DNA from: Dehalococcoidia bacterium
Lineage (GTDB): Bacteria > Chloroflexota > Dehalococcoidia > UBA2979
NCBI GenBank assembly: GCA_964291495.2
Contig: OZ219874.1
Location: 47,440 to 111,439, forward strand
Direction: 5' to 3'
DNA: 64,000 nt
Part shown: positions 5,482 through 25,493 of the stretch, one piece after another
How the letters are laid out: each line of letters starts with the position of its first letter
Numbering within the stretch: position 1 is the stretch's first letter
Notes under the pieces: model-generated
The model's database searches: none
Told to the model about the DNA's origin: nothing
What the model saw: only the letters and a program-made list of their open reading frames with translations
Position numbers and translations under genes: made by a program

Positions 5482-5597
5482 CTCGACCTCCTATTCAAGG
5501 ATACACCAGAACCTTGAATATAGAGCACGGCAGTTGAAGGTTCGGGGCGAGCGCTCTCCTGAGCAAATGCTGCTGTACGACGGACAAGGAGCAGATC

Positions 5598-6826: not shown

Positions 6827-6925
6827 GGCGTTGCCGCCTCCTTGTTCGCGAAGTGCTCCCCGCGCCACCATTCCTGCGTATCGCCCTCGCGATCCCGAGC
6901 CAGGACATCGCGTGTGGCCGCCGGG

Positions 6926-8820: not shown

Positions 8821-8873
8821 CCGGGCTGGCACGTGGTGGAGATGCGCCACAGCCGACCCGGTGGCGAGTTGGC
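8821..8873. repeat. Short intergenic repeat family B, copy 1
   Basis: ccgggctggcacgtGgtggagatgcgCCAcagccgAcccggtggcgagttggc matches 13213..13262 apart from 2 substitutions and 3 single-base indels. Confidence 0.85.
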
Positions 8874-8909
8874 AGCGCGCCGCATCGGGCGTAAGCCAGG
8901 CAAGCCTTC

Positions 8910-9575: not shown

Positions 9576-9588
9576 CCGCGCGTTCCCG

Positions 9589-10308
9589 CTAGCCGAGAGG
9601 CCGGGTCAGAGCGCTGGCTACAGCGGCCAGCTCGCTGGCGCGCTCTGTGCCGACCAGGTCGCGCGGCCGCGCCCCAAGGCGATCGTTGCGCGAGATCCAC
9701 CAGGAGGCGACGCCCCACGGATCGCCGGCAGCATCGAGTTGCTCGTTGACCGTCCGTACCTCGGGCGCCACATCGCGGTGTGCAGCGTCGAACTGGAAAG
9801 TCGGAAAAAGATAGCCGCGACCCGCCAGCAGGCCGAGCAGCCACGAGCGTTCGCGGTAGCGTCGCACCCGCTCGCGGTTCTCCCGCCTGGCCCCGAGCGC
9901 CAGTGCAGCGTCTCCGGCCTCGATCATCGGCTCGTCCCAGATCGCGCGCAGCGCCTCGCCCTCGACCTGTGTCTGGAGCAGCAGCGCACGCTCGTGCTCG
10001 TCAAGCACGCGACGGGGCTCGCCACCGAGCCGCCGCGCGAACTCGTGCTGATTCGCTAGCAGCGCGAGCAAGCTGTGAATCCGCGCCTCGGCCCCGGACA
10101 GCGCCCCGTGCCGCGCCGCCAATCGCGCCGCCGCGTCGAGCAACTCCTCTTGCTCTGCCTGCCAAGTATCTGCGAGCCGCGTCAGGATGCGCGGGACGTC
10201 GCGCCCCCGGCGCTGCGCCAACGCCACGCAGGCGATCTCCAGCTGCTCGTCGTCGAGCTCGCGGGCGAATTCACTGATGCGTTGTTCCAAGTCGGGTTGG
10301 GACGTCAT
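9589..10308 (-). CDS. Cognate antitoxin with C-terminal DUF2384-like (Xre/MbcA/ParS toxin-binding) domain
   Basis: 239 aa, immediately upstream of the RES gene. The C-terminus DPWGVASWWISRNDRLGARPRDLV fits the DUF2384 pattern. Confidence 0.7.
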   Translation of the reverse strand: MTSQPDLEQRISEFARELDDEQLEIACVALAQRRGRDVPRILTRLADTWQAEQEELLDAAARLAARHGALSGAEARIHSLLALLANQHEFARRLGGEPRRVLDEHERALLLQTQVEGEALRAIWDEPMIEAGDAALALGARRENRERVRRYRERSWLLGLLAGRGYLFPTFQFDAAHRDVAPEVRTVNEQLDAAGDPWGVASWWISRNDRLGARPRDLVGTERASELAAVASALTRPLG

Positions 10309-10390
10309 GAGAGGTGCTCCGGGCTATGTTGCTGACGATCCAGTGCGATTATACCACTGTCAGAAACGTATCACCGGCGACGGCTCGCAG

Positions 10391-10464
10391 CGCTTTGACC
10401 ATCTCCAAACTGCGGAGACAGGCTCGACTCACTGAGCCCCCGGCGGATGCGTGTCAACCGCCGG
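10391..10464. repeat. 74-nt repeat family A, copy 1 (two hairpins)
   Basis: cgctttgaccatctccAAACtgcggagaCaggctcgactcactgagcccccggcggatgcgtgtcaaccgccgg. 69/74 identical to 14841..14914, same orientation. Confidence 0.9.
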
Positions 10465-10505
10465 GGCTTCAGAGTTGCCGGGAGCACGATGGGCTGACGC
10501 TCCCG

Positions 10506-10712
10506 CTAGTACGTCCGCCTGAAGTGTACCCAGGTCGCGATCAGAAGGCCCACGCCAAGGACGGCAATGACGCACACTTGGACGAGCCATGCCGAGACAA
10601 GACTGGGGTCACCGATCGACCCGCCCGCCAGCACCCAAGACACCCAGATCATGAGAGTACCGCCCAATAGGCCGATACAGGTGCAGATGAATGGCAGGCG
10701 AATCACGTCCAT
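10506..10712 (-). CDS. Possible small two-TM membrane protein
   Basis: C-terminal 68 codons of ORF 10506..10952: MDVIRLPFICTCIGLLGGTLMIWVSWVLAGGSIGDPSLVSAWLVQVCVIAVLGVGLLIATWVHFRRTY. This part is hydrophobic and protein-like, unlike the Arg-rich upstream part. Confidence 0.3.
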   Translation of the reverse strand: MDVIRLPFICTCIGLLGGTLMIWVSWVLAGGSIGDPSLVSAWLVQVCVIAVLGVGLLIATWVHFRRTY

Positions 10713-10964
10713 CAGTCCCTCCGGGATCCACCACCAAATGGTCCCACATCCCGCTCGGTCGCCTCGAGCGGTTCGGCGGCGCCGGGCGACGTATTGACAC
10801 GACCGACCGCGCGCCGCACGCTGACTACGGCTCACCACAGCCGCGTCGTACCAGGCAGAGGCCTCTTCGGATTGAGGCTGTCCGCGCCCCCTTGGAGGCT
10901 CTAAGCCGGGTACCTGGCGGCTTGTGGTGAGTAGCCGATATCCGCGCCACAAGGGGGCACCTCG

Positions 10965-13157
10965 ATGGGCCTGCTGCCGCCACTCGCCAGGCCGAGGAAC
11001 ACGCTAGAGGCGGTCGCGCTCGTCGCGGGGGTCTGCTCCATAGCGCTACTCGCGCTGGTCGGCACCTCGTGCGAGGGCGAGGAGTCCCAGGACACCGCAG
11101 CACGTCCAGAGCCCACCGCGACGCCACAGGCCACCGCAACAGCACTCACGACCGCCACGCCACGTGCCACCACTGTGCCGCAGGCGACCGCCATGGTACC
11201 GGCGACCGCCACGCCTGAGGCCACCGCCACGCCGCGAGCGACCGCCACGCCGCAGGCCACCGCTACCCCGCAGGCCACCGCTACCCGGGCGCCAACCAGC
11301 ACGCCGACCACCACGGCCACACCGATGGCCAGCACGCCAGTGGCGGGCTCCGCAGCGCCGGACCGGGCCGTGCTGGCCGCGCTCTACAACGCCACGGGCG
11401 GCGCCAACTGGCTGAACAGCACGAATTGGCTGACCGACAGGCCGATCGGCGAGTGGCATGGCGTCACCACGGACGGGGCCGGCCGCGTCACGGCGCTGAA
11501 CCTTGAGGCGAACCAGTTGAGCGGGCCGCTTCCGGCCGATTTGGGTGACTTGGCCAACCTGCAGGCCCTGTCCCTACAAGACAATCAGTTGAGCGGGTCG
11601 ATTCCGGCAGAACTCGGTGAACTGACCAACCTGAGGGTCCTGTCCCTGGAGAACAATCGGTTGAGCGGTTCGATCCCGGCCGCATTGGGTGACCTGGCCA
11701 ACTTGACGGCCTTGTTCCTACAGAACAATCGGCTGGGCGGGCCCATCCCGGCCGAGCTGGGCGAACTGGCGAACGTGAGGATCATGCTCCTCACCGGTAA
11801 CGATTCGATCGAATGCGTCCCTCGTGGCTTGCGCGACGTCGGTTTGTCGGACTTGCGGTTCTGCGTGCCGGCCGATTACGCGCCGACCGGCACGCAGATC
11901 TCGAACAGGGACGCGCTCGTCGCGCTCTATGAAGCGACCCAAGGGGCACTCTGGCTGAACAGCACCAATTGGCTGACCGAGAGGCCGATCGGCGAGTGGC
12001 ACGGCGTAACCACGGACGGCGCGGGCCGGGTCATCGTGCTGCGCCTCTCGCAGAACGGGCTGATTGGGCAGCTCCCTGCGGAGCTCGGCAGTCTCGCCCA
12101 CCTCGAGGGCCTGCTGCTTGCGTCAAACTTCCTGAACGGGCCGATTCCCGCCGAGCTGGGTGGTCTCGCGAACCTCGGAGGCTTGGATCTCTCGAACAAC
12201 GAGCTGAGCGGACCGATCCCGGTCTCGCTCGGAGAACTCACCCTCTTGACCTCCCTGTCCCTCGGCGCGAACCAGCTGAGCGGGCCGATCCCGGCCGAGT
12301 TAGGGAGCCTTCCCAACCTCACGGAGCTGCGGTTGAGCCAGAACGAGTTGCACGGGCCGATTCCCCCAGAGTTGGGCGGCCTCAGCGAACTCAGGTGGCT
12401 GGGGCTCTCGGGAAACGAGCTGAGCGGAGCGATCCCGGCCGAGTTGGGTGGCCTCGCGAGGCTGCAGTGGCTGAAGATCTCCGGGAACAGGCTAAGCGGG
12501 CTGATCCCGCCAGCGTTGGCCCGCCTCACCGGCTTGCGGGAGTTGGTCCTCGACGGCAACGAGTTGAGCGGGCCTGTCCCGGCCTGGATTGGACAGTTCA
12601 CCGCCCTCGGAAACTTGTCGCTCGGAGCGAATCAGTTGAGCGGGCCGATCCCGGCGGAGTTGGGCAACCTCAGCAACCTGAAGCGGCTGTCCCTTGGGGC
12701 GAATCAACTGAGCGGGCCGATTCCGCCGGAGTTGGGCAACCTCAGCAACCTGGCGGCGCTCTCCCTCGAGGAGAATCGGCTAAGCGGGCCGATTCCCCCA
12801 GCGTTGAGCCGCCTCACCAGCTTGTCGGAGTTGATCCTCGACGGCAACGAGTTGAGCGGGCCAGTTCGGGCTTGGATTGGAGAGCTCATCGCCCTCGAGT
12901 ACCTGTTCCTCGGAGCGAACCGGCTCAGCGGGCCGATTCCGCCGGAGTTGGGGAACCTCAGCAACCTGCGGACGCTCTCCCTCGAGGCGAATCAACTGAG
13001 CGGGCCGATCCCCCCAGAGTTGAGTGACCTGGTCAACCTGCAGCTGAGTACCCTCTTCCTGGCCGGCAATGAGTTCACTGGGTGCATACCCGGAGGCTTG
13101 CGAGAGCTTCCGCAGAGTGATCTGGGTGCGCTCGGTCTAGCGTTCTGCGAGCTCTAG
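10965..13157 (+). CDS. Large leucine-rich-repeat (plant-type LRR) protein, two LRR blocks
   Basis: 730 aa. Hydrophobic N-terminus ending ..LLALVGTSC, then a long Thr/Pro/Ala linker (ATATPQ-type). Two LRRNT-like caps (DRAVLAALYNATGGANWLNSTNWLTDRPIGEWHGVTTD and RDALVALYEATQGALWLNSTNWLTERPIGEWHGVTTD) are each followed by LxxLxxLxLxxNxLSGPIPxELG repeats. Confidence 0.85.
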   Translation: MGLLPPLARPRNTLEAVALVAGVCSIALLALVGTSCEGEESQDTAARPEPTATPQATATALTTATPRATTVPQATAMVPATATPEATATPRATATPQATATPQATATRAPTSTPTTTATPMASTPVAGSAAPDRAVLAALYNATGGANWLNSTNWLTDRPIGEWHGVTTDGAGRVTALNLEANQLSGPLPADLGDLANLQALSLQDNQLSGSIPAELGELTNLRVLSLENNRLSGSIPAALGDLANLTALFLQNNRLGGPIPAELGELANVRIMLLTGNDSIECVPRGLRDVGLSDLRFCVPADYAPTGTQISNRDALVALYEATQGALWLNSTNWLTERPIGEWHGVTTDGAGRVIVLRLSQNGLIGQLPAELGSLAHLEGLLLASNFLNGPIPAELGGLANLGGLDLSNNELSGPIPVSLGELTLLTSLSLGANQLSGPIPAELGSLPNLTELRLSQNELHGPIPPELGGLSELRWLGLSGNELSGAIPAELGGLARLQWLKISGNRLSGLIPPALARLTGLRELVLDGNELSGPVPAWIGQFTALGNLSLGANQLSGPIPAELGNLSNLKRLSLGANQLSGPIPPELGNLSNLAALSLEENRLSGPIPPALSRLTSLSELILDGNELSGPVRAWIGELIALEYLFLGANRLSGPIPPELGNLSNLRTLSLEANQLSGPIPPELSDLVNLQLSTLFLAGNEFTGCIPGGLRELPQSDLGALGLAFCEL
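12486..13061 (+). repeat. Tandem duplication of a 288-bp (4-LRR) unit inside the LRR gene
   Basis: Unit 1 (12486..12773) begins NRLSGLIPPALARLTGLRELVLDGNELSGPVPAWIGQFTALGNLSLGANQLSGPIPAELGNLSNLKRLSLGANQLSGPIPPEL. Unit 2 (12774..13061) begins NRLSGPIPPALSRLTSLSELILDGNELSGPVRAWIGELIALEYLFLGANRLSGPIPPELGNLSNLRTLSLEANQLSGPIPPEL. Confidence 0.8.
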
Positions 13158-13212
13158 CCGGGCGCTTGACTCGGGGGCCGTTCCAGCACCTCGACGTGCG
13201 CGCCCAGCGGAA

Positions 13213-13262
13213 CCGGGCTGGCACGTAGTGGAGATGCGTCAGCCGCCCGGTGGCGAGTTGGC
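13213..13262. repeat. Short intergenic repeat family B, copy 2
   Basis: ccgggctggcacgtAgtggagatgcgTcagccgcccggtggcgagttggc, 56 nt downstream of the LRR gene stop. See 8821..8873. Confidence 0.85.
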
Positions 13263-13293
13263 CGTACGCCGCTGACGTAGGGAGACAACCACG

Positions 13294-13686
13294 ATGACGG
13301 GAACCTCGCCTCCGCACCCGGACTACGGAGCCGACGTGCGCGCGTTCCGCTCCGAGTTTCCGGACGTAGTCACTGAGCTGCGCCGACTGCTCGGCGCCAG
13401 GATCTGCGCGGTCTTGGGGTCGGTACAGGACACACGCGTCGTCGAGGAGTGGGCGGCGGGCTCACGCAAACCGCCGGCGACAGTAGAGCGGCGGCTGCGC
13501 GTCGCCCTGCAGGCCGCCGCACCGATCGCCGAGGCGGACTCGCCCGGCGTGGCCCAGGCCTGGTTCCGGGGTATGAACCCGCTACTTGACGACCACTCGC
13601 CGCTGCTGCTGCTGAGCGATGGAGACCTCGACGAAGCGCAGCCCGCGGTGATCGGCGCGGCCCGGGAGTTCGTCGCCGCCGGCTAG
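13294..13686 (+). CDS. Hypothetical protein, DUF2384-like C-terminal region (orphan antitoxin-like)
   Basis: 130 aa with an ATG start. ..SPGVAQAWFRGMNPLLDDHSPLLLLSDGD.. resembles the W..pn..L.g.sP..ll motif of Xre/MbcA/ParS toxin-binding domains. No RES partner follows. Confidence 0.5.
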   Translation: MTGTSPPHPDYGADVRAFRSEFPDVVTELRRLLGARICAVLGSVQDTRVVEEWAAGSRKPPATVERRLRVALQAAAPIAEADSPGVAQAWFRGMNPLLDDHSPLLLLSDGDLDEAQPAVIGAAREFVAAG

Positions 13687-13720
13687 GCTGCACTCGTCCG
13701 TGACCGGCAGATTCCTCGTG
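13655..13720. repeat. Repeat family C, copy 1 (3' end of 13294..13686 plus 34 nt downstream)
   Basis: gcgcggcccgggagttcgtcgccgccGgctaggctgcactcgtccgtGAccGGcagattcctcgtg, nearly identical to 14756..14820. Confidence 0.85.
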
Positions 13721-13848
13721 GCGGCGAGTCGTGGTATCGGCACGGCAAACTGCACCGCGAGGACGGCCCAGCGCTGATCTTCGCGAACGGCGGCGAGTCG
13801 TGGTACCGCCACGGCGAGTACCACCGCGAGGACGGGCCGGCGTTGACC
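13720..13848 (+). pseudogene. MORN-variant repeat remnant (two repeats, no start codon)
   Basis: GGESWYRHGKLHREDGPALIFAN GGESWYRHGEYHREDGPALT. It is in the same frame as the upstream gene and follows its TAG stop. No ATG/GTG/TTG lies between the stop and the repeats. Confidence 0.4.
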
Positions 13849-14039
13849 CACCGTCTCCTCCACCAGCACGTACCGTACCCAGAACTCGGCCGACGGCCTC
13901 TCGCTCGTTGCTGTGTGCGCGTGATCAGGCCCGCATGGGATGCGCTTCGGCGGCCAGGACGGCGACGCGACCCTGCGCGGTCCGGGTGCTCCCGCCGTAG
14001 AATGATTGGACGAGGGGGCGCGCCCGCGAAGGAGGACGG

Positions 14040-14330
14040 ATGACGAACACAGAGGCTCCCACCCGCGAGCGCAGGCCCAGGGAGGAAACCACTCGCCTCG
14101 GCCGGGAGATTTACGAACAGGAGATCAAGGCACAGGTGGAGCCGGGCCACCACGGCGAGTACGTCGCCGTCGACGTCGAGAGCGGGGGATGGGCGATGGC
14201 CGCCGATGCTCTATCCGCGGCGAATCGCCTGCGGGAGCAGCACCCCGAGGCGCTCGACGTCTTCCTCCTTCGGGTCGGGCATCGAGCGTTGCATCACTTC
14301 GGGGGCCGACCCTGGCGGATGGCCGAGTGA
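14040..14330 (+). CDS. Small protein (DUF5678-like) paired with aspartic protease
   Basis: 96 aa with RBS aggagg. ..GEYVAVDVESGGWAMAADALSAANRLREQHPEALDVFLLRVG.. Its stop overlaps the next gene's start (GTGA). Confidence 0.6.
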   Translation: MTNTEAPTRERRPREETTRLGREIYEQEIKAQVEPGHHGEYVAVDVESGGWAMAADALSAANRLREQHPEALDVFLLRVGHRALHHFGGRPWRMAE

Positions 14331-14710
14331 TCGAGGGCGTGGTTAACGCTGCGTACGAGGCCATCATCCCCCTTTCCCTGCAAGGTCCGTTGGCAGAGGC
14401 GAGTGAAGTCGAGGCGGTGGTAGACACCGGATTCACCGGATTCCTGACCTTGCCGCCTTCGCTCGTGGCGGAGTTGGGACTGATTCTCCAGGGCACCAGC
14501 GAGGGGACGCTGGCCGACGGCAGCGAAGTCTCCTTCGATGCGTACGAAGCCACGGTGCTCTGGGACGGCGAGCCGAGGGTCGTACTCATCGACGAGGCAG
14601 ACACGACTCCCCTCGTGGGCATGCTGCTGCTCAACACGTACAACCTGAACATTGGAGTTGAGAACGGCGGCCGCGTCCTCATATGGCGCCTCCCAGTGCC
14701 TACAGCCTGA
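14327..14710 (+). CDS. Retropepsin-like (clan AA) aspartic protease
   Basis: GTG at 14327 overlaps the upstream TGA. VIEGVVNAAYEAIIPLSLQG..VEAVVDTGFTGFLTLPPSLVAELGL.. carries the D-T-G active-site motif. The longer ORF 14006..14710 has an Arg-rich, implausible N-terminus. Confidence 0.7.
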   Translation: MIEGVVNAAYEAIIPLSLQGPLAEASEVEAVVDTGFTGFLTLPPSLVAELGLILQGTSEGTLADGSEVSFDAYEATVLWDGEPRVVLIDEADTTPLVGMLLLNTYNLNIGVENGGRVLIWRLPVPTA

Positions 14711-14755
14711 CCACACACCTGAAAGTGCGAGGCATGGGGGCGTTCACGGCGTCGA

Positions 14756-14820
14756 GCGCGGCCCGGGAGTTCGTCGCCGCCAGCTAGGCTGCACTCGTCC
14801 GTACCCACAGATTCCTCGTG
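14756..14820. repeat. Repeat family C, copy 2 (gene-less copy)
   Basis: gcgcggcccgggagttcgtcgccgccAgctaggctgcactcgtccgtacccacagattcctcgtg. It encodes only ..AAREFVAAS* with no upstream gene body. Confidence 0.85.
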
Positions 14821-14840
14821 ACGGTCCGGTGGCGATACGT

Positions 14841-14914
14841 CGCTTTGACCATCTCCGAGTTGCGGAGATAGGCTCGACTCACTGAGCCCCCGGCGGATGC
14901 GTGTCAACCGCCGG
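14841..14914. repeat. 74-nt repeat family A, copy 2
   Basis: cgctttgaccatctccGAGTtgcggagaTaggctcgactcactgagcccccggcggatgcgtgtcaaccgccgg. See 10391..10464. Confidence 0.9.
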
Positions 14915-14924
14915 AACTCACCCG

Positions 14925-14949
14925 GGAGGGGTCGCTGAGCGACCCCTCC
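14925..14949 (+). terminator. Strong GC hairpin (terminator-like)
   Basis: GGAGGGGTCGC-TGA-GCGACCCCTCC (11-bp stem) followed by TTGATCTCT. It lies between repeat A copy 2 and the HerA gene's 3' end. Confidence 0.4.
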
Positions 14950-15124
14950 TTGATCTCTCGCACAGTCCCGGCGCGCCCGACACCGATTGCAACCTGCTTG
15001 CAGGTAGCCTCTGGCTATCGACGACCGCGGCGGACTGCAGCCGCCCCGGACCACCCCGCGCGCTGCCCGGCACCGGCCTGCAGAGCCAACATCCAGGTGC
15101 CTGGGAAGGAACCTTGCTAGAGCC

Positions 15125-16819
15125 TCACTCGAACCTCGCGAACGGGTCGGCGGTCGTCGCGGCCTCCGCGGGGCGCGTCGCCCAGGCGGGGTAGGGGAAC
15201 TGGAGCAGCAGCGGCACCGGGATCTCCGGCTGCTGGAGGATCATCGTGCCCGGCTTGAGCAGCGAGGCGCGGGCACGCGCGGCCGGCGTCAGGAAGCCGT
15301 ACTCGCCGCGCTGCGCCTCGGCGGCGTCGAGGCGGCCGACCACGCGCAGCGCGCAGTTGGCGACCACGCGCGGCTCCACCTCGCTCGCCGTCTGCTGCGC
15401 GCCGATCAGCACGACGCCGAGCGAGCGGCCGCGCTCCGCGATGTCGAGCAGCACGTCCTTGATCGGGCTCTGGCCTTCGCGCGGCGCGTACTTGTTCAGC
15501 TCGTCCAGCACCACGAGCATCAGCGGCCGCGGCGAGCCGCTCGCCTCCTTGCGTTCGAACTCGCGCTTCAGCACCACGCCGACGACGAAGCGCTGCGCGC
15601 GGTCGTGCAGGCGGTGGATGTCGACGACGGTGACCTGCGCCCCGCCCGTCTCGATGCGGTGCCGCTCCGAGTCCTCCGAGGCGAGGCCCCGGACCAGCTG
15701 CCCGACGTGCGGCCTCGCCGCCTCCAGCCGCCGCATGAAGGCGGAGACCGTGCCGGGAGCGGCGCGTCCGCCCCAGGCGCCCTCGTCCGGGTCGGTCATG
15801 CGCCCGATCGCGTCGACCAGCTCGTCAAAGTCGGTGACCAGCTCGCCGCCGATCTCGACCGTGGGCGCATCGACGGGCAGCGAGAGCCGGGCGGCCATTG
15901 CCAGCTCCGACTCGACGCGCTGCACGACGAAGCCGAGCTGCGAGCGCTCGTCGTCGGCGTCGGCGAAGAGGAAGCGCAGGTAGCGCTCGGCGCAGAACTC
16001 GCGCAGCGTCCAGTAGAAGCCGGTGACGCCGTCCATCCTCGAGCCGGTCAGCGGGATCGGCTGGTCGCCGCGCGCCGCGGGCGCAAAGAGCCGCAGCGAG
16101 GGGAACGGCGCCGCCTCGAGGTCGAGGTCCGTGTAGCGGACTCGTTCGGCCTCGGGCAGTCCGGCGTTGGGCTTGTCGAGGAAGAGCAGGTCCTCGCCTT
16201 TGACGTTGAAGACGAGCGCGCGCGTGTTCGCGGTCTCGTGGCCGAGCACGCCGCTGCCGAACAGCGAATAGAGCAGGAACATCGCGTACGAGGTCTTCGT
16301 CGCGACGCCGGAGACGCCGGAGATGTTGACGTGCGCGCCGCGCTGGCCGTCGAGGAAGTCGAGGTTCGCGAAGATCGGCTCGCCCGAGCGCGAGAGGCCG
16401 ACCGGGAGGCGGCGCTCCATCGCGTCGAAGAAGAGCGCGCGGTCGCGGGCGGCGGCGTGGGCGCGACGCACTGCCTCGCCGGGTCGCGGCGGCACGAAGA
16501 TCTCCGGCTCGACACGCGTGACGGAGACGTGCGCGCTGACCGCGGACTCCGCGGGCAGCACGCCGCTGCTCGCCAGCGCCACATCCGAGGCGAAGCGCAC
16601 GCCCTCCTGCACGGCGCGCAGCTCGTCGACGACGCCGTAGAAGTCGACGTGCTGGCCGTCCGGCAGCGGCGAGGTGACGTGGACCACGTCGTCGAGCTGG
16701 AGGTAGCGCTGGGGGTCGACGTAGGTCCAGAAGCCGAGCGGCGTCGAGGCGCCTTGCTCCGTGCCGAGCACCAGCCCCTCGCGCCGCTGCGCCTCCAGCT
16801 GTGGATCGCGGCCTACCAT
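15125..16819 (-). CDS. HerA/FtsK-type hexameric ATPase (DUF87-like)
   Basis: Start taken at ATG 16819 (RBS GGGAGGA 5 nt upstream), giving 564 aa. The N-terminus GLVLGTEQGASTPLGFWTYVDPQ..DDVVHV..FYGVVDEL is HAS-barrel-like. Walker A-like ISGVSGVATKTSY; Walker B PLMLVVLDELNKY; then GVVLIGAQQTASEV. Confidence 0.8.
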   Translation of the reverse strand: MVGRDPQLEAQRREGLVLGTEQGASTPLGFWTYVDPQRYLQLDDVVHVTSPLPDGQHVDFYGVVDELRAVQEGVRFASDVALASSGVLPAESAVSAHVSVTRVEPEIFVPPRPGEAVRRAHAAARDRALFFDAMERRLPVGLSRSGEPIFANLDFLDGQRGAHVNISGVSGVATKTSYAMFLLYSLFGSGVLGHETANTRALVFNVKGEDLLFLDKPNAGLPEAERVRYTDLDLEAAPFPSLRLFAPAARGDQPIPLTGSRMDGVTGFYWTLREFCAERYLRFLFADADDERSQLGFVVQRVESELAMAARLSLPVDAPTVEIGGELVTDFDELVDAIGRMTDPDEGAWGGRAAPGTVSAFMRRLEAARPHVGQLVRGLASEDSERHRIETGGAQVTVVDIHRLHDRAQRFVVGVVLKREFERKEASGSPRPLMLVVLDELNKYAPREGQSPIKDVLLDIAERGRSLGVVLIGAQQTASEVEPRVVANCALRVVGRLDAAEAQRGEYGFLTPAARARASLLKPGTMILQQPEIPVPLLLQFPYPAWATRPAEAATTADPFARFE

Positions 16820-16937
16820 CTCGGTCCTCCCTTCGCGAGCAGCCGCGCGTCTCCGGCGAGCATCTGCCGGCTCAGCGCGACAACCAGGTCGTTCGGGGTA
16901 CGCGCCGTCGCGATCAGGGGGCTCATGAGTTCCTCCA

Positions 16938-17510
16938 TCAGCGGTTCTCCTGCTCGCGCTCGTCATCGGGGGGACCAGAGAACTCCAGTGGGCGGCCCTC
17001 GCGCTTCGCCTTGAGCCACCGCCGGAAGGACTTCACGCCCTCTCCGGACCGCTGCCCGGCGATCAACCCCTGGACGCTGATGTCCTCGTCCAGGTCGGGC
17101 CAGTGGATGCCTTCGCCGGGGCCGATGAGCTCCCAGTTGTCGCGCTCTTCAGGCGTGCCGTGCACGAGCCGCGGGTACCAGTCAAGCGGTACTGTGATGG
17201 TGCGGCCATCGGACAGCTCGGCCGTGAGCGCGTCCTCGGTCACGATGACGCGCTCCGCCTCCGGCGCCGGGACTTCCTGGTTGGAGTACTCATGCCACGA
17301 CTCGATCAGGAGCTTCTGATGCCGTTCGAGGCTCCTCTCGATCCGGCGTATCTCGGAGCGCCCGATTCCACCGCTCCGTTCAAGCCGGACGGGATCCAGC
17401 CAGAACTTGGCGACACGGTTCCCGCGCCACACGTGCACGTGCGGCGGCTGTCCCAAGTCGCTCGCGTAGAAGATGAAGAGATACGTGCCATCCGAGGTCT
17501 TACGAGGCAT
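16938..17510 (-). CDS. DUF4160-DUF2442 fusion protein
   Basis: 190 aa with a strong RBS GGAGGAAG. The N-terminal half MPRKTSDGTYLFIFYASDLGQPPHVHVWRGNRVAKFWLDPVRLERSGG..LLIESWHEY is DUF4160-like. The C-terminal half LTAELSDGRTITVPLDWYPRLVHGTPEERDNWELIGPGEGIHWPDLDEDISVQGLIAG is DUF2442-like. Confidence 0.75.
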   Translation of the reverse strand: MPRKTSDGTYLFIFYASDLGQPPHVHVWRGNRVAKFWLDPVRLERSGGIGRSEIRRIERSLERHQKLLIESWHEYSNQEVPAPEAERVIVTEDALTAELSDGRTITVPLDWYPRLVHGTPEERDNWELIGPGEGIHWPDLDEDISVQGLIAGQRSGEGVKSFRRWLKAKREGRPLEFSGPPDDEREQENR

Positions 17511-17597
17511 CGCCCACTTCCTCCTTCCTCGACGAACGGGGCGAAGCCGGCGTCGCCCTCGAACCTGTGTAGCCGCTCATCGCGGCGTTTCGCTCGG

Positions 17598-18671
17598 TCA
17601 TACTTCCCGTCCTTTCCCGGTCGTGAGGGACGCTCGTTGCGTGGCTCTCTCGGCGAGGGCCACGGCGATGTAGCGCCGTAACAGTTCGCGGTTTCCCAGA
17701 AGGCGGCGGAGCCAGCCCTCGAGCCCGCTGACGGGTGTGAGGTTCTGCGGGGCACGCGGATCGCGGATCGGCGACCCCGCCAGGTGCGGCAGGGTGCGCG
17801 CGCACTCGTCCGCAAGCCGGGCGGCCTGTTCCACCGGCAAAGTCGCCCACGTCTCGATCCGCATGACCGCGGCGTGGGGGTGCACGTGCGGTCCGACGTC
17901 CGCGACTCGGACGTACCAGGAGAAGCGATCCCTTTTGGCCTGACCCTCCACGGAGAGCCGGAACAGCGGCGTACGATCCCCCACGCCGAGATCGTCAAAG
18001 ATCGCCTGTTCCTCGGGGCAGAGGTACCACCTGGCGGTGCGCTTGATGTAACCGGCGACACGCCGGCCGGTAGTACCCGCACGCAGCGGGCCGTCGACCA
18101 ACGTCAGAGCGCCGCAGTCCGCGGACAGTCGGTTGACCAGTCTTGCCTCGGCCGCAAGCATCCTGTTTGTGAGCTCTCGTACGAGTTCAGACGGCTGCGA
18201 AACATCGAGCACTGTGGAGGCCCGGAAGCACAGGTCGGTCTGGCCGACGGTGAGCACCAGGTCTTCGTCGGTCGTTCCGGCCCGGAGGTAGCAGCGCACC
18301 ACGCGCAACAGATCGTCGTGCGTGAGCACAGCTGCGCGGGTTGGTTCGCAGCGCACTGCCCCAACGGCGTACGAGCCAAACAGCGCGGGGACTGCTTTCC
18401 CGGAGGTCGTGTCGCTGATCGCGTACGCCTCGACACGCCGCACGCCGTCGACTATCTGCACGATCGGAGCCCGGTCGCCCGACAGATGATGCGGGATCCA
18501 TGCGCCCTCGACAGAGGTATCGATGCAGAAGGCACCATCGTTGCCGTTGGCCTTCAGGGGTGCATTGCTGCCGGGGCCCTGTTCGGGTGACCAGGACACC
18601 AAGCGGGTCTTCAGGATGTTCGCGGATTCGCGATCGCCGAGGCGAGGGGCTACGCTCCCGGGTGTGGACAT
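17598..18671 (-). CDS. NurA-like nuclease (putative)
   Basis: 357 aa with RBS AAGGAG. Motifs read as NurA-like: IVQIVDGVRRVEAY, GALTLVDGPLRAG, VAGYIKRT, FSWYVRV, and C-terminal APQNLTPVSGLEGWLRRLLG. It is the first gene of the operon containing the HerA-type ATPase. Confidence 0.55.
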   Translation of the reverse strand: MSTPGSVAPRLGDRESANILKTRLVSWSPEQGPGSNAPLKANGNDGAFCIDTSVEGAWIPHHLSGDRAPIVQIVDGVRRVEAYAISDTTSGKAVPALFGSYAVGAVRCEPTRAAVLTHDDLLRVVRCYLRAGTTDEDLVLTVGQTDLCFRASTVLDVSQPSELVRELTNRMLAAEARLVNRLSADCGALTLVDGPLRAGTTGRRVAGYIKRTARWYLCPEEQAIFDDLGVGDRTPLFRLSVEGQAKRDRFSWYVRVADVGPHVHPHAAVMRIETWATLPVEQAARLADECARTLPHLAGSPIRDPRAPQNLTPVSGLEGWLRRLLGNRELLRRYIAVALAERATQRASLTTGKGREV

Positions 18672-19213
18672 GGAGCCGTGTCTCCTTGTCTGCGGGCTGT
18701 CCGGCGTTGCCGCGCCGGGCAGCCACCACTGCGTTAGGGATTGCTTGGTGGTGCTCGGCCGGGGCGGACCGTCACGAGAGTGGAGGCCGCCCCGACCGAG
18801 ATTTGGCTACTCCGTGGTTTCCTCCCCTCTGTGCGGGATCGCGGTAGCGCCCGGGCCTCCCGCCCCTTTCTCGTGTCCTGAGCGTCCCGGACCCGCTCTA
18901 CTGGGCCCAGCGGCTAAGGAGCACAGGCGACGTGCTAAGATCGATCCGCAAGCGTCCGGCACGGACGGACCCGCCCGGACAGCCGCGTTACCGGTAGTTC
19001 GCGCAAGGCCCGACACCTTGGAATGGCCTTGCAGCCAAAGGGTTTTTGGAGTGGAGGTCACGCGAGCACCCTCCACGCCACCGCGTAGGCACCCCACTCC
19101 GGGCGAACGGCAAACGGGATCCTGAACGAGTGTGGAGTTTCACCGGGTAGGGCCTCCCCCGTCTCCACCACAATCAAGCCCCTCGGGGACTGCGAGCTCC
19201 TCGAGGTTCGCCG

Positions 19214-19237
19214 AGACCGCCGGGAGCCCGGCGGTCT
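19214..19237 (+). terminator. Plus-strand intrinsic-terminator-like hairpin with no upstream plus-strand CDS
   Basis: AGACCGCCGG-GAGC-CCGGCGGTCT followed by TTGCC. It has the same architecture as the terminator after the DUF35 gene (63049..63074). Confidence 0.4.
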
Positions 19238-19318
19238 TTGCCTGTGCAGGCTCCGCTCGTCGCCGTGGGATGCGGGCGTGGAACAGCCGTCGAGGGCGCT
19301 CCTGTGGGCGGTGGGCCG

Positions 19319-21814
19319 CTAGCGCTGCGGCCGGACGGCGACGAGCTTCTCGCGCTGGCGCTCCTCGGCGGCGCGGGCGGCCCCGTCCTCGCCGCCTTCG
19401 TCCGGCCAGCCGACGATGCCGCCCTCCTTGAAGCCGTCGATCTCGGCAGACGAGTAGCCGAGCTCCGCGAGGATCGGGCGGGTGTGCTCGCCGGGCTCGC
19501 AGGCCGGGCGGATGGTCGAGGGCGCGCTGTCGAGGGTGACGACCGGGCCGTGGCGCCAGTACTCGCCGAACGTCGGGTGGCTGACGTCGACGGTGAAGCC
19601 CAACTCGCGGTTAGCCTCGTTCCCCGCGAACTCGGCGACGTTGGCGGCGTCGGCGCGGACGCAGGCGACGTCGCGAGCGGTCAGCTCGCGCTCCCACTCG
19701 TCGGCGCCGCGCTCGAGGAACGCCTCAGCCAGCGCGGCGGCGAGCGCCTCGCCGTGCTGCTCGCGCGCCTCGTCGCTCGCGAAGCGCGGGTCGGCGAGCC
19801 ACTCGTCGCGTCCCAGCGCGGCGCAGAGCGCGCTCCACTCGTGCTCGAACGGCGCGGCGAGGAAGACCCAGGCGCCATCGCCGGCGCGGTAGAGGCGGTA
19901 GAGGGGCCCCATGCCGAGCAGCTCCGGGTCCGGCTGGCGGCGCGGCGGCACGTCCGGACCGCGCACGGCGCCGTCCGCGTTGGCGTAGAGGTTCGAGGCG
20001 ATCATCGTCGTGAGCTGGTACTGGCCCACGCCCAGCTCCTCGGCGGCGCGCAGGCCGAGCAGCAGGCTGCTGCCGAGGCCGAGCGCGGCGTTGACGTCGG
20101 GGTTGCCCTCGTTCGCGTTCATCAGTCGCCAGGCCTTGCGCTTGAGCTCGTCCATCGGCAGCTCGGCGTCGCCGGCGTGCAGCTCGCTCGGGGGCATCTG
20201 CTGGATCGCGCCGCCGCCGAGGGCGCCCGCAATCGGGTGCATCGCCGGCTTGTACGAGTACGGCCCGGAGTCTCCGTAGGAGGCGCCGTAGTGGTAGACG
20301 ACGCGAGGGTTGAGGTCGCGCGCCCGCTCGTAGCCGATGCCGAGCCGCTCGGCGACGCCGGGACGGAAGTTGTGCATCACGATGTCCGCACGCCGCAGCA
20401 GCCGGTGGACGATCTCCTGGCCCTCCGCCGTCTTGAGGTCGACCCCGATGCTCTCCTTGCCCCCGGTGGTCTTGTAGAACAGCATCCGCCCCGCCGTGTA
20501 GCGGCTCACCTCGCCCTCGGGCGGCTCGACCTTGATCACGCGCGCCCCGAGGTCGGCGAGCAGCGCGCTCCCGAACGGCGTGGCGTAGAAGGTCGAGAAG
20601 TCGACGACCGTGATGCCCTCGAGGGGCGCCGTGGGGGCGGGGCCGGGTTCGCCCGGCTCCACGGCGGTCCAACCGTCGGCGTCGACGCCGTTGGCCGAGC
20701 CGAGCGAGGGCGCTCCACGGCCGGGAGTCGCGGGAGTCTCGGTCTGGCGGACAATTGGCCCGACCTGCTCCACGCCGTCGATCTCGATGATGTGCTCGTT
20801 GTGCCGGACCTGGGGGTGGTCGAACGCGTCGGCGGCCTCGAAGAAGGGTTCGATGGCGATGTCGCGCTCCGCGTCGAAGATCGCCTTCCATTCGCCCCAG
20901 GTCTTCTGGCGCACGCGCTCGAGGATGATCGCCCAGACCTCCTCGCTGTCGTCCGGATCCCTAAGCGCCGGGAGGTCGGCGAAGCGGGGCTCGGAGTAGA
21001 GGTCGGTGAGCCCGAGGGCGTTCATCTGGGCCATGAAGAGGTGCGGCAGGGTGTTCGCGAACTGCAGCCACACGCCGTCCTTCGTGACCGCCGTGAGGTA
21101 GTTGGGGCGCGGGATCTGGTGCTGGATCGCGCCCCATGAGCCGAGTCGGTCGGCGGCGAGCGGGTCGGCCGCGGCGGCCTGCAGGGCGAACCAGCGGAGC
21201 ATGTCGTAGGCGGTGGTGCCCTGGAGCAGGCTCGTCTCGACGTGCGTGCCTCGATGCGTCTGTCGCCGCACGTGCAACGCGGCGAGGATGCCCTGCAGTG
21301 CCGCGTGGAGCGCGCCGTAGCCGGCCGACGGCACCGCCGCGAAGACCGGGCCGCCTCGCTCGGGCAGCAGGCTCGAGAACTCGAGCATGCGACCAGTCTT
21401 CGCGGACACGATGCCCTCATAGCCCTTGAGGTGCGCCCACGGGCCGCGGGCGCCGAAGCCGGTGATCGAGGCGTAGACGAGCGCCGGGTTGAGCTCCCGG
21501 GCCTCCTCGTAGCCAAGGCCGTGCCGCTCCATCGCGCTGGGCCGGAAGTTCTCGACCAGCACGTCCGCCGCCGCGACCAGGTCGCGCGCGGCGGCTCGCC
21601 CGTCCTCGGACTTGAGATCGAGGACGCGGCTGCCCTTGCCGCGGTTCCAGAAGCCCCACGCGGGATGCCCCCGGTACGGGTCCCCCGAGGGCGGCTCGAT
21701 CTTCACGACCTCCGCCCCGTAGTCGGCGAGGATCGTGCCGACGAGGTTGCCGTGCATGCCCCGCGTGAAGTCGAGGACGCGCAGTCCGCTACAGGCCAGC
21801 GTCACGGTCGTCAC
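19319..21814 (-). CDS. Double-domain family III CoA-transferase (two CaiB/BaiF modules fused)
   Basis: Start moved to GTG 21814 (or 21805), after the upstream gene's stop at 21832. Module 1: LRVLDFTRGMHGNLVGTILADYGAEVVKIEPPSGDP..VLVENFRPSAMERHGLGYE. Module 2: ITVVDFSTFYATPFGSALLADLGARVIKVEPPEGE..IVMHNFRPGVAERLGIGYE. Confidence 0.8.
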   Translation of the reverse strand: MTTVTLACSGLRVLDFTRGMHGNLVGTILADYGAEVVKIEPPSGDPYRGHPAWGFWNRGKGSRVLDLKSEDGRAAARDLVAAADVLVENFRPSAMERHGLGYEEARELNPALVYASITGFGARGPWAHLKGYEGIVSAKTGRMLEFSSLLPERGGPVFAAVPSAGYGALHAALQGILAALHVRRQTHRGTHVETSLLQGTTAYDMLRWFALQAAAADPLAADRLGSWGAIQHQIPRPNYLTAVTKDGVWLQFANTLPHLFMAQMNALGLTDLYSEPRFADLPALRDPDDSEEVWAIILERVRQKTWGEWKAIFDAERDIAIEPFFEAADAFDHPQVRHNEHIIEIDGVEQVGPIVRQTETPATPGRGAPSLGSANGVDADGWTAVEPGEPGPAPTAPLEGITVVDFSTFYATPFGSALLADLGARVIKVEPPEGEVSRYTAGRMLFYKTTGGKESIGVDLKTAEGQEIVHRLLRRADIVMHNFRPGVAERLGIGYERARDLNPRVVYHYGASYGDSGPYSYKPAMHPIAGALGGGAIQQMPPSELHAGDAELPMDELKRKAWRLMNANEGNPDVNAALGLGSSLLLGLRAAEELGVGQYQLTTMIASNLYANADGAVRGPDVPPRRQPDPELLGMGPLYRLYRAGDGAWVFLAAPFEHEWSALCAALGRDEWLADPRFASDEAREQHGEALAAALAEAFLERGADEWERELTARDVACVRADAANVAEFAGNEANRELGFTVDVSHPTFGEYWRHGPVVTLDSAPSTIRPACEPGEHTRPILAELGYSSAEIDGFKEGGIVGWPDEGGEDGAARAAEERQREKLVAVRPQR

Positions 21815-21831
21815 CCTCCCAGCGTGTCGCG

Positions 21832-24165
21832 TCAGCGGCAGATTACCGCGAACGCGTAGCCGCGGCCCGTGAGGCCCTCGATCACGGTCTCGAGGGCGGC
21901 GACGGTCTGCGAGCGCTCGCCGCCCCCATCGTGCATCAGGATGATCGCGCCGGGTCGCACGTTGGCGAGGATGTGCGAGGCGATCTGCTCCGCCCCCGGC
22001 CGCCGCCAGTCCTGCGGGTCGATCGACCAGAGCACGATCGACTTGCCGAGCTCGGCGGCGGTGCGCACGGCGCGCTCGTTCGTCGCAGCGTACGGCGGGC
22101 GCAGGCACTCGATCGGATCGACGCTCGTCCCCGCGACGGCGTGGAGGGCGTCATCAGTGCTCGTCACCTGCGCGACGATGTCCTCGCGGTCCGCCTTGCT
22201 CAGCCAGATGTGGTCGAAGGTGTGGTTCTCGGCCTCGTGCCCGGCCTCGACCATGCGCTCGATGATCGACGGGAACCTCGAGACGTTGGAGCCGAGCACG
22301 AAGAAGGTCGCCGTCACCCGGTAGCGATCGAGGACGTCGAGCACCGCGGGCGTCCATGTCGGATGCGGTCCGTCGTCGAACGTCAGGTAAGCCAGCGGCG
22401 CGCCCGCCTGGTTGTGCGCCGGCGGGTGCGCCGGATCCACCCGGTCCGGGGGCTCCTCGGCGGGTTCGGGCTGCTGCCAGGCGGCCTCGACGGCGTCCCA
22501 GGTCGCGCGGTCGACGACGCCCGTCGGTTCGAGGTCGGCACGGAGTTGGATGCGGATCACGGCCTCGCGCGTCGCCGTGTCGTAGACGTCGTAGTAGCGG
22601 CCGGGGTAGAGGAAGCCAAGCCCCCGCACGCGCGCGAGCCGCTGGTGCAGCGCGCGCACGGCGCGCCCGCGATCGCCCGCGCCGAGCGTGTTGCCTTCGG
22701 CGAAGCGCTCCGGCGATGGCGCGGGCAGCAGCTCGTCGGCCCCCGGGGCCTCGGGGTGCACGCCCGGCGCGCGCTCGGCGGACTCGAGGAACCCCGCCAG
22801 CTCGTGCAGATAGTCGTCATCGGGGGAGAGTTCGATCGCCTGTGCGACCGCCTGACGTGCCCGGTCCAGCTGGTCCGGCGAGGCGAGCGCGAAGCCGAGG
22901 GCGCGGATCACGTGAATCGCCGCGTCGTCGGGCCGATGCTCGAGCGCGCGCTCGCTGTAGTCGAGGAGTGTGACGGCCATCGTCGTGAGGTCGTGCTCGG
23001 CGGCCGTGTCGATGATGAGCGGTCCGTCGAGGGCGAACGCCTCGGCGGGTGGGTGTCCGCGTTTCAGATCGAGCGCCGCCGCGTACTCCCCGGCGAGCAC
23101 GTGGGTGAGCAGGGGTTGCCCCGGCGATCCCGCGTGCCCGAGGCGCGCTGCCGCCAGCTGGTTCACGAGGATCGAGAGCCAGCGCAGCCCGTCGTGACCG
23201 GGAACCTCGCCGGCCGCGTGCACGGCTCGCGCCGCGGCCTCACGCCAGAGGTGGGCCTCCGCGAGCGCCACGACGAGCGCCGCGTCGGCCGTGGCATCCG
23301 GGGGAAGGCCTGAGGGAACCGCGAGTTCCACCGGGCTCATGTCGCTGCCGTCCCAGCGGTAGATCCGGAGCCCGTGCTCCTCGACGGCGCAGGCGTAGCA
23401 GAAGACGTAGGGGTTCGAGTCGTTCAGTACGAACTCGTGCAGGCCGTCGCCGTCGAGGTCGACGATCTCGCCGGCGTTCGGCCGCGAGCTGATGTGCGAG
23501 AGCGCCGTGGAGAGGCGGGCGCCGTCGAAGTGGATGACGTCGAACGTCCCGGCGTGCGCCCCCGTCGGCCCGCGGATGACGATCCAGGCGCTGCCGGGTG
23601 CCGCATCGATCGTGACGAGCTCGACCTGCTCCGTGCGCTGAGGCGCGGTGTCGATCTCGATGCGGTCGATCTCCTCGGACCACGTTCCGTCGTCGTTGAG
23701 GCGGTAGACGGCGACGATGTGGAAGAAGTTGATCGGGTCGCCGTCGTCGTTCCGGTAGAACGGCTGCGGCCCGTTCGTGACCACGGCCCAGTACGCGCCG
23801 TCCGCATCGGCCACCGCGAGGTCCAGGGCGCGAGCCGTGAGCTCGTTCTCGCCGAACTCCTCGGCGATCGCTGCGAGCAAGATCGAGGCAACTTCCGCTG
23901 CGCGCTCCTCGGCGCTGGGTGTCGGCTCCGGCGCGGGAGTCGGTGCGGGCGTCGCGGTGGGCGTCGGCGTGGCTGTCGAGGTTGGCGTCGGTGTCGGCGG
24001 GGGACTGGCTGCGGGGGTTGCGGTCGGGCTCGGCGCGCTCGTCGGCGAAGGCGCCGACGTTGCGACGGTCACGGGTGCGGGGCCAGAGTCCTCGCCGCTC
24101 TCGCAGCCGGCAAGGGCAGTCCCTGCCAGCAGCAGCGCGGCAGCGAGGGCAGTCCGGGCGTTCAT
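21832..24165 (-). CDS. Lipoprotein with peptidoglycan-binding-like domain and C-terminal polysaccharide deacetylase (NodB) domain
   Basis: 777 aa. Lipobox LLLAGTALAGC, then a Thr/Pro linker. PG-binding-like GDRGRAVRALHQRLARVRGLGF..TREAVIRIQ. NodB-like YLTFDDGPHPTWTP..ATFFVLG..HEAENHTFDH..RPPY..DPQDW. Confidence 0.8.
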   Translation of the reverse strand: MNARTALAAALLLAGTALAGCESGEDSGPAPVTVATSAPSPTSAPSPTATPAASPPPTPTPTSTATPTPTATPAPTPAPEPTPSAEERAAEVASILLAAIAEEFGENELTARALDLAVADADGAYWAVVTNGPQPFYRNDDGDPINFFHIVAVYRLNDDGTWSEEIDRIEIDTAPQRTEQVELVTIDAAPGSAWIVIRGPTGAHAGTFDVIHFDGARLSTALSHISSRPNAGEIVDLDGDGLHEFVLNDSNPYVFCYACAVEEHGLRIYRWDGSDMSPVELAVPSGLPPDATADAALVVALAEAHLWREAAARAVHAAGEVPGHDGLRWLSILVNQLAAARLGHAGSPGQPLLTHVLAGEYAAALDLKRGHPPAEAFALDGPLIIDTAAEHDLTTMAVTLLDYSERALEHRPDDAAIHVIRALGFALASPDQLDRARQAVAQAIELSPDDDYLHELAGFLESAERAPGVHPEAPGADELLPAPSPERFAEGNTLGAGDRGRAVRALHQRLARVRGLGFLYPGRYYDVYDTATREAVIRIQLRADLEPTGVVDRATWDAVEAAWQQPEPAEEPPDRVDPAHPPAHNQAGAPLAYLTFDDGPHPTWTPAVLDVLDRYRVTATFFVLGSNVSRFPSIIERMVEAGHEAENHTFDHIWLSKADREDIVAQVTSTDDALHAVAGTSVDPIECLRPPYAATNERAVRTAAELGKSIVLWSIDPQDWRRPGAEQIASHILANVRPGAIILMHDGGGERSQTVAALETVIEGLTGRGYAFAVICR

Positions 24166-25090: not shown

Positions 25091-25493
25091 AGCGGCCAGG
25101 GGGCCTGTAAGCCGAATTCTGTACCGCCCTCGCAACGAGGGCGGCGACGGCCATCCATCTAGGACGGCGGTTGCCCGCCGCCTCCAGCGGCCTACCCGGG
25201 AGCGGAGCCGGACGCCCCTGCCGTGCAAGGCACGGCGCGCTCCCCTATTTGGCCTTGCTCCGGGCGGGGTTTGCCCGGCCGCCCCGTCTCCGGGACGCCG
25301 GTGCGCTCTTACCGCACCATTTCACCCTTACCGCCGGAGCCGAGGCCCGCGACGGCGGTATGTTTCTGTGGCACTTTCCGTCGGCTCGCGCCGCCCGGCC
25401 GTTAGCCGGCGCCCTGTCCGGAGGAGTTCGGACTTTCCTCCCGCGGCTCGCCCGAGGGCGTTCCGCCGGCGGCCGTCCGGCCCCCTGGCCACC
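25091..25493 (-). ncRNA. rnpB: RNase P RNA, bacterial type A
   Basis: The minus strand contains GGGAGGAAAGTCCGAACTCC, GGTAAGGGTGAAATGGTGCGGTAAGAGCGCACC, CCCGGAGCAAGGCCAAATAGGGGAG and ACAGAATTCGGCTTACAGG. P1 is formed by GGCCAGGGGGCC (5') and GGCCCCCTGGCC (3'). Ends are approximate to within a few nt. Confidence 0.92.

Follow-up and report, generated by a model that had tools for sequence, protein, structure and literature searches.

Why should a terminator-like hairpin oriented for the plus strand stand in an intergenic gap that holds no plus-strand gene? The question arises in a 64,000-nucleotide stretch of DNA from an uncultured, high-GC member of the Dehalococcoidia (hereafter the window; contig OZ219874.1, positions 47,440 to 111,439), in which 647 bp (18672-19318) separate the stop codon of a CoA-transferase-family open reading frame (PF02515) from the ATG of a NurA-like gene. 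A reading made from the letters of the window without database searches (the sequence-only reading) had described this gap as coding-free and rich in hairpins, and had suggested either a structured plus-strand RNA of a few hundred nucleotides or a long 5′ leader of the nuclease/ATPase operon, each with a possible guide-like role. The gap itself is real. It is a mosaic of host DNA, the tip of a tmRNA gene, a small open reading frame and the leader of a mobile gene cassette, and so is not coding-free (Table 1). GC3 frame bias is missing from about 18690 to 19100, and the whole 647 nt fold no better than dinucleotide-shuffled sequences (z -1.15 on the plus and -1.88 on the minus strand). A decayed protein gene, the outcome that was to overturn the RNA proposals, did not emerge from a tblastx comparison with 80 loci, which returned a match to the relative L001 only, with similar scores in all six frames.

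Alignment with other copies of the cassette divides the gap in two. The portion from 18672 to between 19109 and 19171, depending on the copy, is conserved along with the cassette, and the remaining 19172-19318 is not; the co-occurrence of the spacer with the HerA operon, proposed as a check, holds for the former portion. In full-length copies the boundary of the conserved unit lies at 19171, truncated copies stopping further in, and the homology to the other full-length copies (L081, L092, L088 and L090) ends at one short sequence, which on the minus strand reads GTGGTGGAGACGGGGGAGG, forms the far end of the unit in five copies including the window (19153-19171 there), and occurs once within the window. 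On the plus strand this core, CTCCCCCGTCTCCACCA, comprises the end of a T-stem, an acceptor strand, A73 and CCA. At first sight its plus-strand end resembles the 3′ end of an alanine-type tRNA acceptor. A tRNA gene as the source of the core was considered and set aside, as the only tRNAs that ARAGORN found in the window or its relatives were unrelated ones in L082 and L089; nor did it find a tmRNA in the window.

The origin of the core was provided by a short contig from public sequencing data. Public runs, among them X1 and X2, contain window sequence; their kind is unrecorded, they look metagenomic, and their sequences are assembled contigs that carry no strand information. The X2 contig, 151 nt long, spans window positions 19154-19241 with few differences, and reads ...GGACGGGGAGTTCGATT followed directly by CTCCCCCGTCTCCACCA and then by the flank 19172-19241 as in the window; leftward, past the match to the window, it continues as ...ACGGACGCTCGCTGGACGGGGAGTTCGATT. 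When joined, these parts give GGAC-GGGGAG-TTCGATT-CTCCCC-CGTCTCC-A-CCA, a canonical tmRNA-type T-arm and acceptor end with the flank of the window directly after it. X2 represents the island-free arrangement in a related population, in which an intact tmRNA T-arm is joined to the window's flank. Moreover, the islands of Dehalococcoides are known to enter the single tmRNA gene (ssrA) at its 3′ end and to be bounded by an ssrA direct repeat, for which the 19-nt primer TGGTGGAGACGGGGGAGGG has been published (McMurdie et al., 2011, BMC Genomics 12:287; PMC3146451), and the reverse complement of the core matches this primer at 18 of 19 nt. Because of the T-arm in X2 and the published repeat, the core is assigned to a tmRNA and not to a tRNA.

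Taken together, the identity of the core, the island-free joint in X2 and the published repeat indicate that window positions 1-19171 are (part of) an ssrA-targeted island with 19154-19170 as its right-hand att core. The GC content, which rises at about 19200 from a lower level over the preceding part of the window, and the cargo of the region, including a Mutator-family transposase and LRR/He_PIG proteins, fit with this assignment. A second copy of the core, a tmRNA gene and an integrase are all absent from window positions 1-19171. Apart from the left end of the island, which lies beyond the window together with its integration module, the evidence shows that site-specific recombination inside the last 17 nt of ssrA was the route by which the island entered. 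Terminal inverted repeats were not found at the cassette.

The arrangement closely resembles that of the ssrA-specific islands of Dehalococcoides (McMurdie et al., 2011), in which integration likewise targets the single tmRNA gene at its 3′ end, the direct repeat is practically identical (TGGTGGAGACGGGGGAGG), the cargo lies downstream of ssrA and a reverse-strand reading frame crosses the att repeat. However, the host here belongs to an uncultured high-GC lineage of Dehalococcoidia; the cargo consists of a NurA/HerA cassette and LRR proteins, whereas dehalogenases are carried there; the relatives recovered with the small open reading frame at an island edge carry tyrosine integrases instead of the serine recombinase DsiB; and the frame crossing the core is a separate, short, conserved ORF of 36 aa. 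The ssrA-targeted islands known from Dehalococcoides appear to use the same 17-19-nt core in distant high-GC Dehalococcoidia.

Table 1. Features in and beside the gap between the CoA-transferase-family and NurA-like genes. Assignments to ssrA, to an island end and to coding sequence come from sequence comparison.
Feature	Positions	Strand	Description
Host flank	19172-19318		Holds the putatively stranded tmRNA terminator hairpin
Terminator-like hairpin	19214-19237	+	GC-rich, 10-bp stem, 4-nt loop, then TTTGC
Putative att core (attR, ssrA direct repeat)	19154-19170	+	Last 17 nt of a tmRNA gene, CTCCCCCGTCTCCACCA
Small ORF (predicted)	19171-19058	-	GTG at 19171 to TGA at 19058; 37 codons and stop; VVETGEALPGETPHSFRIPFAVRPEWGAYAVAWRVLA
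Small-ORF peptide			...RPEWGAYAVAWRVLA
Cassette leader	19057-18672	-	Noncoding
Variable part of leader	18800-19057	-	Includes an A-run and a hairpin (~19003-19049) just past the small-ORF stop
Hairpin A	18755-18799	-	14-17-bp stem-loop, kept in 15/15 module copies
Hairpin B	18695-18724	-	12-bp palindromic stem, 6-nt loop; ends 7 nt before the ribosome-binding site
Ribosome-binding site AAGGAG	18682-18687	-	Within 18672-18694, which also includes the spacer to the ATG at 18671-18669; kept in all copies
NurA-like gene	17598-18671	-	357 aa; relatives carry PF09376

The island end offers an ordinary explanation for the odd terminator. The hairpin at 19214-19237 begins 43 nt beyond the CCA end of the tmRNA, has a folding energy of -25.3 kcal/mol (z -4.0 against dinucleotide shuffles), equally stable on both strands, and, as the sequence-only reading had correctly noted, is plus-oriented and built like the hairpin at 63049-63074, with a GC stem followed by TTTGC. 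An analogous layout is found in L090, where the same CCA end is followed by 11 nt, a 13-bp hairpin and TTG. These features recall the intrinsic terminators of tRNA and tmRNA genes, in which a GC-rich hairpin stands soon past the CCA end and is followed by T residues; the hairpin here differs in that its T-tract has three T only, so that a standard terminator scan passes over it, and in that its RNA gene is detached. Most simply, 19214-19237 is the original ssrA terminator, stranded by the integration of the island, and it would terminate transcription. As the tip of ssrA and its terminator were moved to the far end of the island, a plus-strand terminator was left without a plus-strand gene. 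The hairpin also separates the CoA-transferase gene from the island. A 28-nt match of 19200-19227 upstream of core NurA genes (in L002 and others) was dismissed as chance, since it lies inside a coding gene there.

Once the hairpin is assigned to the tmRNA, the proposed plus-strand RNA loses its main support. Such a structured noncoding RNA of about 300 nt, running from about 18948 to the terminator at 19214-19237 and antisense to the small ORF and leader, would account for the plus orientation of the terminator and for an extended -10-like motif (TGnTAAGAT or TGnTACGAT) that is common to the window (18933-18941), L001 and L081. However, the terminator lies outside the conserved unit, the motif is missing from six of the nine copies scanned, and the consensus fold is weaker on the plus strand (-87 kcal/mol, against -106 kcal/mol on the minus strand); an excess of U.G over C.A pairs in hairpin A also favours the minus strand. 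Rfam 15, whose families include tmRNA, 6S/Ms1, riboswitches and CRISPR repeats, gave no family match on either strand of the window or two relatives, the best scores being 12-20 bits against thresholds of 35-162. We consider this RNA very improbable. The suggested guide-like role likewise finds no support, there being neither an Rfam match nor repeats or spacers, and a false lead is thereby removed from the gap.

The other stem-loops listed in the sequence-only reading fared unevenly. Those at 18755-18799 and 19051-19076 (z -3.3), like the terminator hairpin, stand above dinucleotide shuffles, as does a further one at 18695-18724 that was absent from that list, whereas those at 18954-18980 (z -1.9) and 19003-19032 (z -1.55) are not clearly above chance and are confined to the closest relatives. 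The word gtcacg/gtggagg, said to recur in the gap, does so only within the closest group of relatives.

Immediately inside the att core, the description of the gap as coding-free breaks down. The segment 19171-19058 appears to be coding, as judged from variation biased by codon phase, an excess of synonymous change and the retention of its stop and length. The variable columns at the three codon phases number 2, 1 and 8 in one count and 3, 2 and 11 in another, and across codons 21-36 they number 5, 5 and 13 at codon positions 1, 2 and 3. Within the last 16 codons, nine vary synonymously only and one in amino acid; the middle third is variable at all codon positions and free of indels; and the first five codons are invariant in the window and its close relatives, with one synonymous change in the distant L093. 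The stop is retained while alternating between TGA and TAG, and the length from VETGE to the stop is 36 aa in 7/7 full copies compared, and likewise in L093 and L095. The end of the frame, 19058-19105, is the most conserved block of the unit, being 92-96% identical between lineages, compared with 52-54% at the fourfold-degenerate sites of NurA. In view of this codon periodicity, an RNA aptamer or a promoter in the conserved 5′ block was dropped.

The GTG start lies inside the core in every copy, and the start and first codons of the frame are the complement of the core. In the window, GAGGGG precedes the start by 7 nt and is unconserved between copies, and neither a conserved ribosome-binding site nor a conserved promoter was found among the copies. 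A HMMER search of 1.8 billion proteins recovered four homologues (P0122 and P0125-P0127; E 2.6e-8 to 5.6e-6), which share the C-terminal 36 residues; further matches to large proteins with Ig-like or related repeats (Ig, HYR, PKD) are probably spurious. A Pfam search with the small ORF and a word-index protein search using the small peptide gave no match, and neither the ORF block nor hairpin B is present in the viral collections.

The homologues in L093 and L094 stand at the edges of integrase-bearing islands without NurA, and those in L093-L095 are two to three genes from, or adjoin, tyrosine integrases; in L095 the order is tyrosine integrase, 70 nt, core and small ORF, the ORF being out of frame with the integrase. 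Because homologues occur at island edges and beside integrases without NurA, the small ORF appears to be tied to the att end of the islands and not to the NurA cassette. It would thus belong to the integration/excision side of the element, and may be expressed, or extended at its N terminus, from the integrase side once the ends of the island meet in a circle or in tandem islands. In Dehalococcoides the integrase frame crosses the repeat, and the 3′ gene fragment at an adjoining end may complete it (McMurdie et al., 2011; PMC3146451). The small ORF is a candidate for a junction-dependent coding piece of this kind.

The leader that follows the small ORF is the part of the gap to which the earlier proposal of a structured operon leader applies. 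It fits 18672-19057, which is noncoding, travels with the cassette and has two hairpins before the ribosome-binding site. In this leader, codon periodicity is absent and tblastx scores are alike across the six frames. Its last ~150 nt form a module that is found in 15/15 copies, including L085 and L087-L089, which lack the small ORF, and that has a second copy downstream of HerA in L086/L087. The order within the module is a purine-rich motif, GTARC, hairpin A, a C/A-rich spacer, hairpin B, AAGGAG and the ATG.

Both hairpins of the module are kept as structures. Hairpin A has a folding energy of -38 kcal/mol (z -6.1 against dinucleotide shuffles) and four pairs with changes on both sides, and its minus-strand cells comprise 17 U.G against 4 C.A; hairpin B has 93.6% of its cells paired (z -2.6). 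In the two together, 90% of cells are paired, compared with 30-47% when partners are slid. As regards the proposed test of stem conservation and covariation, pairing persists across the copies and covariation is modest, with 5 pairs changed on both sides against 2-5 in slid controls. For the whole element including the small ORF, RNAalifold gave 21 such pairs against 12.6 +/- 1.7 in shuffled and 6-12 in slid alignments, the alignment being uncertain in 18800-19057. The U.G bias of hairpin A and the consensus folding energy favour RNA on the operon strand, and hairpins A and B are most likely minus-strand mRNA structures that would tune stability or translation. The module resembles structured bacterial 5′ leaders in that conserved stem-loops precede the first gene's ribosome-binding site by a set distance, but it differs from them in the absence of an Rfam match and of a visible ligand-binding-like core and in its weak covariation. 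Pairing of CUCC/GUCU, which lies in the small ORF, with the ribosome-binding site was also considered; the pairs are invariant and short and so provide no evidence.

Could the hairpins instead act as DNA? The 12-bp stem of hairpin B forms a perfect palindrome, and its loop faces one way in some close relatives and the opposite way in others (CGGYAA and TTRCCG); in a BLAST comparison of the window with L001 it appears as an inverted match. In the noncoding spacers of chloroplast DNA, minute inversions have been described in which the loop of a perfect stem-loop is likewise turned either way between closely related sequences. Hairpin B differs in that it is located in a bacterial mobile cassette, directly upstream of a ribosome-binding site. 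The flipping of the loop suggests that a hairpin forms in DNA and that a role at the DNA level is possible. On this alternative, the terminal ~500 bp, hairpins A and B included, would serve as attP-arm sites, a transfer origin or an operator, for instance for the 96-98-aa protein of the cassette, which would suit the repeated inversion of the loop through a hairpin or cruciform, the C.A mismatches that the minus strand of hairpin B shows in the window, L081 and L088, the distance of less than 500 bp to the att core and the weak covariation. However, the module of A and B also occurs far from att cores (L085, L087-L089) as well as downstream of HerA, its spacing to the ribosome-binding site that follows is constant in every case, the U.G cells of hairpin A far exceed its C.A cells, and no relaxase or nick-site motif was seen. 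A DNA role for the region is in our view unlikely.

It might also be argued that only the att core and the ribosome-binding site are functional, and that the remainder of the gap is a spacer whose apparent conservation reflects the recent spread of the cassette. The middle of the leader, at 30-55% identity between distant lineages, is indeed near neutral and conserved no better than the fourfold-degenerate sites of NurA, and the fold of the whole region is no better than that of shuffles. Against this, identity in the final 50 nt of the small ORF, and in the segment comprising hairpin B and the ribosome-binding site, is 84-96% in most comparisons between lineages (53-67% against the solo copy L088), where those sites reach 52-54%, and the pairing of hairpin A survives sequence change. 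We hold this explanation to be improbable.

The cassette downstream of the leader is about 4.35 kb long, and comprises the conserved upstream region, a 96-98-aa gene, NurA (362 aa), a DUF4160-DUF2442 fusion (190 aa), a 42-aa ORF and a HerA-like ATPase (565 aa), the last with weak PADLOC and NCBIfam HerA matches. It is found in at least 12 genomic contexts, often beside transposase, restriction or CRISPR genes. Its NurA is a paralogue distinct from the core NurA that most Dehalococcoidia carry, with about 50% identity, and the region upstream of the core gene is short and unrelated to the cassette leader. The pairing of a HerA-like ATPase with a nuclease partner, here NurA, is shared with the SIR2-HerA and DUF4297-HerA anti-phage systems and the archaeal and bacterial NurA-HerA end-resection complexes, and, as with the HerA anti-phage systems, cassette islands adjoin restriction, CRISPR and transposase genes. 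In contrast to these systems, the cassette is a mobile paralogue with the additional 96-98-aa, DUF4160-DUF2442 and 42-aa genes, and its defence role is a candidate one.

Based on these findings, we propose that the gap is the attR of an island in the 3′ end of ssrA, consisting of a host flank with a terminator, a small ORF and a cassette leader, in front of a deletion variant of the cassette; we consider this reading probable. At integration, strand exchange would have taken place within the last 17 nt of ssrA, by which the ssrA tip and the terminator hairpin would have been parted from the rest of the gene by more than 19 kb and left at the opposite end of the island. The last ~115 bp of the island would encode a peptide of 36-37 aa, the complement of the att core supplying its first codons, and the leader would be an untranslated stretch in front of the first cargo operon, that of the mobile cassette. 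A scan of nine copies gave no sigma-70-like promoter on the minus strand, and because the unit lacks a recognisable promoter, transcription probably reaches the cassette from further upstream, whether by reading through the terminator hairpin or, once the island is excised, from the integrase side.

In a stronger version of the proposal, the ORF at the att core would be a junction gene that depends on the state of the island for its expression or N-terminal extension, silent or minimal while the island is integrated and active after the ends are joined, with a part in excision control and with read-through switching on NurA/HerA. If so, transcription of the small ORF, with translational coupling, would come from the integrase side, as in L095, and excision would switch on the cargo nuclease-ATPase through transcription across the hairpin leader. 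We regard this version as rather improbable.

With respect to annotation, the attR reading explains the gene-less terminator in ordinary terms and locates the true edge of the island, which is needed to annotate its cargo, including the candidate NurA/HerA defence cassette. It also adds two unannotated features, namely a predicted conserved peptide gene overlapping the att core and a conserved leader with hairpins that accompanies the cassette. These two are modestly novel, while the ssrA island end is itself of a known kind.

Finally, the cassette copy in the window has undergone a rearrangement just downstream of its leader. Its NurA is an in-frame fusion of the first 19 codons of the 96-98-aa upstream gene with NurA, and alignments with L001 and L081 trace this fusion to a 300-bp deletion at 18615/18616, by which the small upstream gene was lost. 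The joined form is confirmed by an assembled contig of run X1.

The 6-nt loop of hairpin B, the stem-loop preceding the ribosome-binding site of the NurA-like gene, occurs in two reverse-complement orientations, CGGYAA and TTRCCG, in the window and at the equivalent place in the relatives' loci (L001 and L081-L092), and its orientation flips repeatedly between close relatives, the 12-bp stem remaining unchanged. Within the NurA-like gene, 300 bp present in every relative are absent from the window, a deletion comprising codons 20-96 of the 96-98-aa gene that stands first in the cassette together with the first ~24 NurA codons, and its product is an in-frame fusion of the remainder of this gene with NurA. 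The first-gene product has a conserved core, AEWADIALxILxRRAxEQQ, and gave no Pfam match.

At four of the relatives' loci (L082, L084, L091 and L083), the cassette begins at the identical base, AG/CCCCATC, just inside the att core, and the small ORF ahead of the leader is without its first six codons. The contexts of these four copies are unrelated, and in L084 the insertion splits a Mutator-family transposase gene; the common left end may represent integration at secondary sites. Additionally, a tRNA-Glu-like sequence called by ARAGORN, with good T- and anticodon arms and a poor D-arm, lies ~230 nt upstream of the partial leader in L089, and may be another att remnant.

Copies of the leader and its module are also found in other arrangements. 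In L083, an IS481-family element sits in the middle of the leader, flanked by the target duplication CCTAGC, and the leader can be exactly rejoined across it. The full small ORF and leader occur in L088 as a solo copy with no NurA following. In L086 and L087 the hairpin A/B module is present a second time, downstream of HerA and ahead of an uncalled ORF.

Coordinates of the features described, with positions in the window or in the relative's locus
Feature	Sequence	Position	Strand
Hairpin B loop	window	18707-18712	
NurA-like gene	window	17598-18671	minus
300-bp deletion point	window	18615/18616	
Cassette left end	L082, L084, L091	about 5230	
Cassette left end	L083	about 4180	
tRNA-Glu-like sequence	L089	5175-5243	minus
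IS481-family element	L083	4435-5463	
Solo small ORF and leader	L088	10080-10538	minus
Second hairpin A/B module	L086 and L087	8893-9024	
Post-HerA stretch	window	14838-15124	minus
CoA_transf_3 ORF	window	19319-22108	minus
RNase P RNA, bacterial class A (258 bits, E 5.5e-83)	window	25092-25488	minus
Leucine-rich-repeat proteins	window	2173-3390 and 10965-13157	plus
He_PIG/Ig-like protein	window	572-1927	

Past the HerA stop, ~290 nt are kept in the window, L001, L082 and L085, and are not conserved in L081 or L084; within this stretch lie a perfect TTGACA and a hairpin, GGAGGGGTCGC...GCGACCCCTCC.

The ORF adjoining the gap on its other side is a 929-aa frame with two CoA_transf_3 stretches, the alternatives being a tandem fusion and an ORF called too long. 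The window also encodes an RNase P RNA. The island cargo includes eukaryote-like repeat proteins of a type frequent in host-associated bacteria, namely two leucine-rich-repeat (LRR) proteins and one He_PIG/Ig-like protein, one of the LRR proteins being weakly similar to LRR effector families.
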